Source: a virus
Reading direction: 5' to 3' (one strand)
IMG/VR virus record: IMGVR_UViG_3300043774_000178
Coordinates: 32,001-96,000 of that record
DNA length: 64,000 nucleotides
A program made the translations under genes and the position numbers. The notes under the pieces were generated by a model. It saw only the letters and a program-made list of their open reading frames with translations, was not told where the DNA came from and ran no database searches. Shown here in pieces: positions 43,867-56,211 of the stretch. The stretch's first letter is position 1, and each line of letters starts with the position of its first letter.

Positions 43867-43891
43867 ATTATTTGATTTGGTTAATAGATAG

Positions 43892-43963
43892 TAGTTCCAC
43901 CTGGACTCGAACCAGGAATACAAGCTTAGAAGGCTAGTGTTATATCCCTTTAACTATGGAACT
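43892..43963 (-). tRNA. tRNA-Arg(TCT)
   Basis: Acceptor AGTTCCA/TGGAACT, D-stem GTTA/TAAC, anticodon loop CTTCTAA, T-arm CCTGG-TTCGAGT-CCAGG; no encoded CCA. Confidence 0.93.
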
Positions 43964-54172: not shown

Positions 54173-54414
54173 CAGTCATGACTTTTAGGTGTAACGCCTA
54201 CTATTTGATCAGGTGTATATTCATCTAATGCTTTTATATAAGCTTCTATAGCTGTGTCAGCGTGTATAGTCACTACTGATACAGAGTATCTTTGACTACC
54301 AGGTTGTATTCTGACCAAATATGCTTGGTTATCTCCACCAAAGAATTCTCTAAATGCAGTTAGTATAGCTTCCTCAGAAGCCATGCCATTCATCATTAGA
54401 ATAATCTTCTTCAA
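54172..54414 (-). CDS. Hypothetical protein
   Basis: 80-aa ORF; start uncertain. Confidence 0.6.
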   Translation of the reverse strand: MKKIILMMNGMASEEAILTAFREFFGGDNQAYLVRIQPGSQRYSVSVVTIHADTAIEAYIKALDEYTPDQIVGVTPKSHD

Positions 54415-54598
54415 GCATTTGCTCTAAGAAATTTTGAGCTATCTCACCATGAATCTCAAACTTAGGTTTTACAGGTGTAGCAACTTGCTTAGCTCTAATA
54501 AGCATTTTAAGAGTGTTACGGAGGTGATTAACGTCCATATCATCAACATTAATCTTTTGACCATTCCTCATGGTCCAATAAACTGGTTCTTTAATCAT
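54374..54598 (-). CDS. Hypothetical protein
   Basis: W...NGQKI.V.DM...HL.N.LKML pattern. Confidence 0.7.
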   Translation of the reverse strand: MIKEPVYWTMRNGQKINVDDMDVNHLRNTLKMLIRAKQVATPVKPKFEIHGEIAQNFLEQMLEEDYSNDEWHGF

Positions 54599-54613
54599 AA
54601 TTATAAATTTAAG

Positions 54614-54880
54614 TTAGTAATCAAGTTTCTGTATTTCTTTTTGGATAAATTCTAGTCTTGCCTCTAGATTTCCATATTCATTAAATGCTAGTAATTCTGC
54701 ATCACTAAGTTGTGCTTTATATTCTTCAACTGGTTTATTCATATAGTTACCTAAATGAATATATTCTTCTTGACTAATAAGATTTGATTCTAACAATCCT
54801 CTTAACCAGCCCATTATACCGCCTCTAAACTTATCTTTGTTTTGCACCATAAGTTTTAATAGTTCTTTGTCTGCTCTCAT
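54614..54880 (-). CDS. Hypothetical protein
   Basis: 88-aa ORF. Confidence 0.7.
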   Translation of the reverse strand: MRADKELLKLMVQNKDKFRGGIMGWLRGLLESNLISQEEYIHLGNYMNKPVEEYKAQLSDAELLAFNEYGNLEARLEFIQKEIQKLDY

Positions 54881-54920
54881 AATATTATTAATTAAGTTTC
54901 TATAAGTTATGTTAAGTAAA

Positions 54921-55620
54921 ACTACAAGTCAAACTCTGCTTTACAGTATGAGAGTTTATGCCTGAAACCTTGTAGTCTACTCAACAACCAGAAGTGTTAG
55001 CCCGTTGCTGTCCCTAGGGAGTGCTGGCATGTGGTTACTGGTTAAATACCCCTCTGCACTCAGTTGTAATAGTATTGGTTGTAGCTCAATTTAAAAGTAA
55101 ACATCATTCAAGATAGCGTACTGTGAACACTTCTATATATCTATAGAGCTATCACTATCTTATAGTTTAAATTAAATCATAACTAAGAGTTCTTATACTA
55201 CTCTTAAATCAACTATTACAACTGCTCACCCTTGGGAAGTGAGAATGGTGCATTAGTACCTTGCATACTCTTACAAGGATTAGTTATTTCTGTCTTCCAG
55301 TGGTACTTCTACCTGCAATTTTAACTACTCCAATTGCATAAATTACTTTAAGTATAAAGCTTTCGCATTTCACTTATGCCTTTCTTACAAAGATGATTAG
55401 TCTTCTCAACCTTTACAGAGGTTTAGTTAGGAGTTACATACAGCTAACAAGTAATCATCTTGTTTCTTATAATCTTACTGTAATAAGATTAAATCACTGA
55501 CATAAATAGTACTCTCACAAGGTTGCAACCCTTGAGGATGTAGTCATTCCATTAAGAGCCCACAGTAATAGACTGACGAGATCTACTAGTAGCATTTCCT
55601 TACCTGCTTGGATGAGAGTA
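54921..55620 (-). ncRNA. Candidate large structured ncRNA or ncRNA cluster
   Basis: ORF-free in the track; many nested helices, e.g. 54921/54969, 55061-73/55212-24, 55390-99/55452-61, 55510-17/55613-20. Strand inferred from flanking genes. Confidence 0.6.
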
Positions 55621-55653
55621 TAAGCAGTTTTATATCATGCTTAGGATATGTCT

Positions 55654-55899
55654 TTAGATATTATCAATACATATTAATGAATCTAAGTCAGCGTATTTAC
55701 CTGTGTATACTTTGCCCGACTGTGATTCTACTTTGATACTATCTTCAGAGACTTCAAGGAAATACTCTGTCTTAATATGCTTAGAAGTTTTGGGAGAATG
55801 ATGCTCTACAGCATTATTGTGTCCTAATATACATCCTACAAAGAATGTAATAATAGCATAAATAGTGAATGCGAATGCAAGTTTACCATTGTTAATCAT
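55654..55899 (-). CDS. Membrane-anchored hypothetical protein
   Basis: Start moved to MINNGKLAF; the upstream extension is low-complexity DNA. Confidence 0.65.
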   Translation of the reverse strand: MINNGKLAFAFTIYAIITFFVGCILGHNNAVEHHSPKTSKHIKTEYFLEVSEDSIKVESQSGKVYTGKYADLDSLICIDNI

Positions 55900-56019
55900 A
55901 TAATTGAGATTTGAGTTACTGAAATTAATTCCCCGGAGAATATGTGGCTCTAATAGATAATAATAATAGTATAGATAGAGATAGAGATAGTAAGTAAGTA
56001 TGTATAAAGATACTTGTAT

Positions 56020-56211
56020 ATACTGACCAATAGCCATATTCTTAAATTGTATGTGGAGTATGAGTAGGGATTATTCATACTGACCAAGGTTGTTGTAGAT
56101 ATGTGGTGGTTGATTATCAACTAGTTAGCTCTTAATGAATCTTAATTAATCCATAGTAACTTCAATAACATACTAGTTTATCACTAGTATATACTGACCA
56201 TGTATTGACCA
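56020..56211. repeat. ATACTGACCA direct repeats (3 exact + 1 variant)
   Basis: Copies at 56020, 56077 and 56191; TATTGACCA at 56203. Confidence 0.75.

Follow-up and report, generated by a model that had tools for sequence, protein, structure and literature searches.

Parts of the tRNA fold recur as processing signals or excised RNAs in mascRNA (MALAT1), in RNAs C and D of the phage T4 tRNA cluster and in mitochondrial tRNA punctuation. The tRNA-like domain of tmRNA (SsrA) is built from an acceptor, a stemless D-loop substitute that touches a T-type loop, an insert, and a T-type arm of 5 bp. Y RNAs and YrlA (RF00019 and RF02553; Ro60/Rsr) have a terminal stem formed from both RNA ends and a variable, partly tRNA-like body. 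Bacterial tRNA-Sec is marked by an 8/5 stack, a 6-bp D-stem, a long variable arm and a UCA anticodon. The element described here, which is 112 bases long and comes from the genome of an uncultured aquatic phage, shares features with each of these. The best explanation is that it encodes a small structured RNA, a member of a family specific to phages.

The stretch of DNA analysed (the window, 64,000 nt) comes from an IMG/VR virus record of 114,090 bp (completeness 96%, G+C content 32%), of which it spans bases 32001-96000. Its + strand carries three giant ORFs, for which Pfam gave PD-(D/E)XK and LysM matches only. On the - strand, numerous small genes come after a replication module (DNA polymerase, primase, helicases), and PHROGs annotation places the element between this module and a block of small early genes. 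The element itself is on the - strand, in an ORF-free gap of ~770 nt (54881-55653) bounded by ORF 55654-56037 and ORF 54614-54880. The first 46 codons of ORF 55654-56037 (window 55897-56037, - strand) are of low complexity, with runs of Tyr and Leu. The real start is probably the second Met (~55899), which would give an 81-aa protein with a hydrophobic segment, and the 3' end of the ORF is conserved as coding sequence in contig L003. A promoter and terminator scan of 54400-56200 returned nothing exceeding shuffled expectation. A repeated promoter or operator was considered and rejected because the conserved blocks occur only once in the window and in the genome.

An earlier note had read the element as a non-canonical tRNA-like cloverleaf. 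The parts recognised here, together with the structure that adjoins them, are listed in 5' to 3' order of the element, the neighbour last.

55613..55620, - strand: closing stem (P1), 5' strand UACUCUCA, paired with 55510-55517; in tRNA terms U55620 would be position -1, with 55619-55613 as one strand of a 7-bp acceptor
55608..55612, - strand: joiner UCCAA, single-stranded and nearly invariant, leading from P1 to the tertiary pairing; conserved in two alignments (A3 and A4)
55604..55607, - strand: joiner GCAG, forming a pseudoknot with the hairpin loop, the counterpart of the D-loop/T-loop contact; supported by covariation
55536..55603, - strand: variable insert of the window subtype, seen in relatives of the same subtype
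55602-55599 with 55556-55553, - strand: 4-bp stem of the insert
55593-55581 with 55573-55558, - strand: 13-bp bulged long arm of the insert, supported by 12 relatives
55580-55574, - strand: loop CUCGUCA (7 nt) capping the long arm
55550-55536, - strand: small hairpin at the end of the insert
55518..55534, - strand: T-arm-like hairpin with a 5-bp stem CAAGG/CCUUG and the loop GUUGCAA, with zero bases before the 3' strand of P1
55510..55517, - strand: closing stem (P1), 3' strand UGAGAGUA, with covariation across 41 copies; A55510 is the discriminator under the 7-bp acceptor reading
55506..55509, - strand: unpaired conserved 3' tail C-U-A-U (family consensus C-N-A-A/U)
55621..55648, - strand: 28-nt H-type pseudoknot, a neighbour outside the family core, read from the sequence

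The predicted fold is no more stable than that of shuffled sequence (MFE z-score -0.68), so a cloverleaf drawn from this single sequence could be due to chance. Comparison with relatives is decisive, and the core of the earlier observation is real and far beyond chance. In two related contigs the two ends of the element are almost unchanged and the middle is divergent. Exact matches to a 20-mer (55531-55512) number at least 119 among viral contigs and at least 120 among metagenome contigs, from freshwater as well as marine (TARA) sources. Among prokaryote genomes the 20-mer occurs in one of 185,579 species, on a 3.5-kb contig of a lake MAG that is probably a mis-binned piece of phage. This near absence from prokaryotes argues that the conserved portion was not copied from a host gene. 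GenBank phages (50,697 records) gave no match with a 1.3-kb query, nor with a 49-nt minimal version of the conserved portion at E up to 1. Rfam 15 gave none at its gathering thresholds, none over 1.8 kb with E relaxed to 10 and none for a 151-nt stretch alone. In the literature no paper containing the motif strings was found, and keyword searches returned no description of such an RNA. The family is apparently undescribed in RNA catalogues and papers.

By the same comparison, the element is a member of a large phage-specific RNA family with a shared handle and a swappable insert. At least 225 distinct copies were collected from aquatic viral and metagenome contigs. The handle common to all copies consists of the 8-bp closing stem, the joiner, a hairpin of 5 bp with a 7-nt loop leading into the 3' strand of the closing stem, and, just past that strand, a conserved unpaired C. 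The joiner reads UCCAA followed by GCAGG, or has an extra UU ahead of the G. The 225 copies among the matches listed are 49-258 nt long (median 112); 142 of them have an identical closing stem, and the five joiner bases UCCAA are found in all 225. In the same 225 listed copies the insert between joiner and hairpin ranges from 5 to ~200 nt and falls into ~88 unrelated sequence classes, with a single 'empty' example, L013, which is an almost bare handle of 49 nt (L013:5512-5560). Within insert classes, loops are conserved over covarying stems. The element is single-copy in the whole window-source genome; each of six near-complete genomes of 113-123 kb (this one and five others) has one or two copies, and two or three are present on some contigs.

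Run on the window, a covariance model derived from 47 copies gives the element 73.6 bits (E 4e-14); the runner-up site reaches 16 bits. Pairing was assessed in 41 diverse aligned copies (A4), whose diverged members came from second copies and from a scan for the loop variant. Seven of the eight pairs of the closing stem, including the first, show two-sided changes, as do two of the five pairs of the T-like hairpin. Standard pairs occupy 98% of the A4 cells, none of 500 shuffles equals the covariation, and no slid register comes close. In L243, from a scan anchored at the 5' side, another pair of the hairpin stem is altered, from G-C to A-U. Both the 8-bp acceptor-like stem and the 5-bp T-like stem stacked directly on it, as the earlier note had drawn them, are present at those positions and conserved.

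The 7-nt loop of the T-like hairpin is not free. It pairs with the joiner (GCAG with UUGC), and the central C-G pair of this interaction (55606 with 55526) is replaced by U-A in 4 of the 41 copies. A variant joiner, AAUAG, occurs only together with the matching variant loop AUUAGAA; this match extends to L203 compared with L233, where the elements are otherwise near-identical. In the longer joiner the extra UU can pair with AA of the loop. Loop positions 2, 3 and 6 are U, U and A in all loop variants seen except that of L263, which has C at position 6. G-U pairs are tolerated throughout, and the commonest joiner-loop pairing includes one. The constraint therefore acts on RNA and not on duplex DNA.

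This last point bears on the idea of a DNA-level element, that is, a miniature mobile element bounded by inverted ends of 8 bp, a site of recombination or a palindrome to which a protein binds. The stem strands do amount to terminal inverted repeats of 8 bp, the hairpin region is close to a palindrome, a neighbouring module can be present or absent (a 455-bp indel relative to contig L002, described below), and multiple copies on one contig are known. A DNA element nevertheless seems very improbable. Stems with G-U and U-G pairs are not expected of it, and a covarying joiner-loop pairing, which in its commonest form contains G-U, would make no sense in duplex DNA. In addition, no target-site duplication was seen in the flanks by eye, the copies are strongly biased in orientation with respect to genes, and the source genome of the window holds only one.

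The insert of the window subtype was compared in 12 relatives (A2). The long arm is 100% paired in these sequences, with four pairs changed on both sides. Here the earlier note had proposed an arm of 8 bp with a 7-nt loop; its position and loop hold, but the actual arm is a bulged one of 13 bp. The small hairpin assigned to the variable region is found in its predicted place (55550-55536). The D-like arm AGCA/UGCU is not supported. It breaks wherever it varies (in 6 of the 12 relatives), it is absent from other subtypes, and its bases serve the better-supported pseudoknot and long-arm pairings. Covariation had itself been suggested as a check, and the closing stem, the hairpin and the long arm are all conserved and covarying, but the D-like arm shows no covariation. 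The loop triplet CGU of the window subtype varies among relatives. Loops of 7 nt occur 10 times in inserts compared with 5.5 in shuffles (~2x), several of them reading C-U-N-N-U-C-A, an excess too weak to carry an argument for anticodon-loop mimicry by the inserts.

Two further observations concern the range of forms in the family. The insert of one copy (L004:9033-9152, + strand) contains a canonical T arm with a 4-bp stem and the loop UUCAAAU, a fragment of a genuine tRNA taken on as cargo; ARAGORN calls no tRNA at this place. In another subclass (L150, L177, L228, L236, L237, L241 and L249) two extra hairpins separate the T-like hairpin from the 3' strand of the closing stem. In these copies the sequence UUGGA before the 3' strand can pair with the joiner UCCAA, which extends the closing stem to ~13 bp, and a U-run often comes next. 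The subclass may represent an alternative or 'closed' form.

With respect to tRNA, ARAGORN and Rfam detect only a tRNA-Arg (43891-43963) in the window, and nothing at 55509-55620 even at E up to 10. A relaxed search of this kind had been proposed in the earlier note, and its silence at the element fits an RNA that is not a tRNA. The acceptor-type stack consists of 8 (or 7+1) bp plus 5 bp with zero intervening bases, and both helices covary; it is 13 bp long rather than 12 if the first pair forms. The last pair of the hairpin before the loop is G-C. The loop, GUUGCAA, is not T-psi-C-R-A, and nearly every variant retains U-U-N-N-A at positions 2-6. The constant U, U and A fit, as a pattern of bases, the general T-loop pattern. 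By analogy, the covarying joiner-loop pair would sit at the place of the G19-C56 elbow pair of tRNA, and the handle appears to imitate the acceptor/T-arm 'minihelix' and the elbow. The tRNA mimic first proposed is in this way narrowed to a conserved RNA that seems to copy the acceptor/T-arm half without being a tRNA; the full cloverleaf does not stand, as there is no D-arm and the 'anticodon arm' is swappable.

The ends of the element also resemble those of tRNA genes. Under the 7-bp acceptor reading, members of the family mostly have U at -1, A-U as the first pair, an A discriminator and the tail A-C-N-A. Among the matches listed, the C of the tail is present in 206 of 225 copies and the A two bases on in 177 of 225, and a C at tail position 75 is no commoner than background. 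In the clade's own tRNA genes (Arg, Leu, Asn and two odd ones of 86 nt), U likewise prevails at -1, and the ending is N73-C-U-A, once A-C-C-A. The ending A-C-U-A-U is common to the tRNA-Arg gene of the window and the element.

Some features of these tRNA genes deserve mention on their own account. Those at window 43891-43963 (- strand) and in L011, L041, L043, L048, L061, L064, L073 and L100 end in discriminator-C-U-A (one in C-C-A), so that 3' ends in the clade are a consistent near-miss of a CCA end and not either CCA or nothing. The two 86-nt tRNA-like genes reported by ARAGORN (L006:3196-3281, - strand; L069:5321-5406, + strand) have an 'anticodon' of two bases and a long extra arm. In L006 this gene is ~150 nt upstream of the element.

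A working but odd tRNA, of the tRNA-Sec-like 8/5 type, charged and used in translation, is effectively excluded. It would be in keeping with the formal 8+5 stacking, the U at position 2 of the 7-nt loop and the tRNA-gene-like tail. However, there is no D-arm, the T-loop is non-canonical, position 37 is C, and both ARAGORN and Rfam are silent. The 'anticodon' arm, moreover, is ~17 bp long and in relatives is swapped for unrelated inserts of anything from 5 to ~200 nt. No special meaning can be kept for the tRNA-Sec geometry emphasised earlier; the 8/5 count fits, but nothing else does, with no D-stem and a CGU triplet that varies. The suggestion of a decoy for anticodon nucleases is likewise disfavoured by arm lengths that are not tRNA-like and by the C at position 37. 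Nothing ties the element to a virion nucleotidyltransferase, a link also raised in the earlier note, and no gene for a CCA-adding enzyme was found in the genome. Among the functions it had listed, a processing signal appears to fit best, with a U preceding the first A and U-A-C-N-A at the far end, as in the tRNA genes of the clade.

The genomic context of the family is informative in several ways. About 90% of copies are co-oriented with the nearest ORFs, and the copies lie in gene-free blocks with a median of ~300 nt to the ORFs on either side. Their immediate flanks are A/U-rich. A stable structure or hairpin ending no more than 12 nt upstream is seen in 54% of contexts versus 33% of random controls, and some copies are ~35 nt upstream of a start codon. 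In several copies (for example L057, L154, L212, L231, L232, L236, L237 and L249) a U-run directly follows the closing stem, so the 3' end of the RNA would there coincide with the end of the stem. What flanks the element is shuffled from phage to phage, and its neighbours are not the same on every contig.

In the window, the upstream neighbour is the pseudoknot at 55648-55621, which starts 5 nt past the stop codon of ORF 55654-56037 and abuts the element without a spacer. It has a 4-bp stem 1, a 6-bp stem 2 and an A-rich third loop. Stem 2 covaries between window/L003 and L017/L078, and the pseudoknot is found upstream of the element in 8 of 127 contexts. On the other side, the otherwise 99.7%-identical contig L002 is without the 455-bp stretch 55048-55502 immediately 3' of the element (junction at L002 ~2834-2838). 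The gene-free block is therefore a string of independent cassettes and not one large RNA. Within the block, window 54915-54985 (- strand) is a second recurring module, with an 8-bp closing stem followed by a U-run and no Rfam match. It contains the same CUCUCAUCC...GCAGG words as the 5' half of the handle and a shortened version of the 3' half. Modules of this type are located directly 5' of the element in 8 other contigs.

The arrangement raises the question of a cis-acting role, in which the element would be an mRNA stabiliser, a nuclease block or a terminator for the flanking genes. Its position between co-oriented genes would suit such a role, as would its frequent location just downstream of a stable hairpin or shortly before a start codon, and the U-run ends of some copies. 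A role of this kind is unlikely, however, given the typical distance to ORFs on both sides within larger gene-free blocks and the shuffling of the neighbouring sequences; elaborate covarying inserts would also be unnecessary for it.

The reading preferred here, to which we assign a probability of roughly 0.5, is that a stable small RNA is excised by the tRNA-processing enzymes of the host, which in doing so punctuate the early transcript. RNase P of the host would cleave this polycistronic transcript at the 5' edge of the element, at or next to U55620, and host tRNA 3'-end enzymes would trim at the A-C-N-A tail (~55510-55507). A stable RNA of ~110 nt would be released in this way. Excision would also define the 3' end of the upstream message, which would be left ending in its protective pseudoknot. 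The insert would be the working part, a binding or decoy module that differs from phage to phage.

Support for excision comes from the covariation of stem, hairpin, joiner-loop pairing and long arm, from the tRNA-like ends, from the spacer-free stack and from the loop, with its U-U-N-N-A and its covarying pair at the place of G19-C56. The size and distribution of the family also count in favour. The placement of co-oriented copies in gene-free gaps, the upstream stable structures and the U-runs at the stem end point the same way. The model is weakened by the failure of tRNA detectors and of the Rfam tRNA and tmRNA models to recognise the element, by a loop that is not T-psi-C-R-A, by the lack of a D-stem and by a stack of 13 versus 12 bp. 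It is weakened further by the background frequency of C at tail position 75. In L150, L177, L228, L236 and others the minihelix is broken because two extra hairpins intervene between hairpin and stem. The handle is also conserved in sequence far beyond the needs of an RNase P or RNase Z substrate, which suggests a sequence-specific partner.

Such a partner is the centre of a second possibility, in which a protein recognises the sequence of the handle and docks there, as Ro60 does on Y RNA or as in sRNA scaffolds, and the copies are modular trans-acting phage RNAs. The ends would then be set by termination or by general nucleases and the resemblance to tRNA would be incidental; the proposal is partly compatible with excision. 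It would account for a handle that stays near-invariant, with most listed copies sharing one stem, while inserts are replaced wholesale. The ~88 insert classes with loops conserved over covarying stems, the U-run endings of some copies and the rarity of the 'empty' handle are also in its favour. However, genes for TROVE/Ro60, DUF2828, RtcB and PolyA_pol/CCA enzymes were not found in the window-source genome, and TROVE and DUF2828 are absent from four or five related complete genomes (in both cases the DUF2828 search had no positive control). Rfam gave no Y-RNA match, and no candidate partner was identified. This explanation is a tentative one, clearly behind excision.

A bolder version, for which our confidence is equally low, combines elements of both. 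In it, an invariant handle that mimics the tRNA elbow would bring the RNA to a dedicated protein or to a host machine that handles tRNA, and would present ~88 interchangeable 'cargo' arms as lineage-specific modules for host takeover or counter-defence. Loops that bind or imitate particular host RNAs would be an example.

The conserved core might instead be a new catalytic or ligand-binding RNA, such as an aptamer or a self-cleaving ribozyme, that can do without its peripheral stem. Conserved bases at a junction and a pseudoknot combined with a stem of variable length are the usual anatomy of small ribozymes. A self-cleaving ribozyme of the hatchet class (L065:8591-8727, + strand; Rfam, 81.6 bits) is located ~870 nt upstream of the element in L065. 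However, models for twister, pistol, hatchet, hammerhead and HDV-like ribozymes gave no match on 55490-55640 at E up to 10, and the 151-nt stretch shows no similarity to any Rfam ribozyme or riboswitch at that threshold. A catalytic or ligand-binding core would leave the very stable 8-bp closing stem and the tRNA-gene-like flanks unexplained, there is no downstream expression platform, and the flanks differ between copies. We consider it improbable, on a par with a cis-acting role.

The excision model, like the family as a whole, has implications beyond this locus. The element is among the most strictly conserved non-coding sequences of widespread aquatic phages of ~115 kb, both freshwater and marine. 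Its organisation may be seen as a natural 'chassis plus cargo' design whose basis is the region of tRNA recognised by processing enzymes. If the processing model is true, it would explain how early transcripts are cut and stable small RNAs are made without enzymes of the phage's own. If the cargo arms are effectors, the ~88 insert classes would be a catalogue of unexplored interactions between phage and host RNAs. The handle could also serve as a compact RNA-expression scaffold in Bacteroidota-type hosts.

Among known systems, the tRNA-like domain of tmRNA has the closest layout. The order of parts is common to both: a stemless strand in place of the D-loop, a large insert where tRNA has its anticodon arm, a T-type arm that sits on the acceptor with no spacer, and 3' bases left unpaired. 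Unlike tmRNA, the phage element does not have the G3-U70 alanine identity pair (the third pair is U-A in 40 of 41 copies), its loop is GUUGCAA in place of T-psi-C-R-A, and it has neither a tag reading frame nor a series of pseudoknots. Its inserts, from 5 to ~200 nt, are too short and mutually unrelated, and ARAGORN reports no tmRNA. With canonical tRNA and bacterial tRNA-Sec it has in common the coaxial stack of 7 or 8 plus 5 bp, the G-C pair before the loop, the U at -1 and the A-C-N-A tail. It differs from them in having no D-arm, no fixed anticodon arm and a non-canonical loop, and in going undetected by ARAGORN and Rfam; of the hallmarks of tRNA-Sec, the D-stem is missing and the loop triplet is CGU where UCA would be expected.

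The likeness to mascRNA, to T4 RNAs C and D and to the mitochondrial punctuation model lies in an acceptor/T-arm mimic embedded in a longer transcript, with A/U-rich single-stranded flanks and ends like those of local tRNAs. Unlike those cases, the phage handle is almost invariant, has a covarying pseudoknot for the D/T-loop contact and acts as a chassis for ~88 inserts, and its cleavage is predicted. Y RNAs and YrlA resemble the element in the terminal stem formed from both RNA ends, in the variable body and in occurring in phages. They differ in that the element has no Rfam match to them and that the complete genomes of the clade that were searched contain no TROVE or DUF2828 gene (the latter searched with no positive control). 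The roles of the parts are also reversed: in YrlA the tRNA-like part is the body, whereas in the phage element it is the handle.
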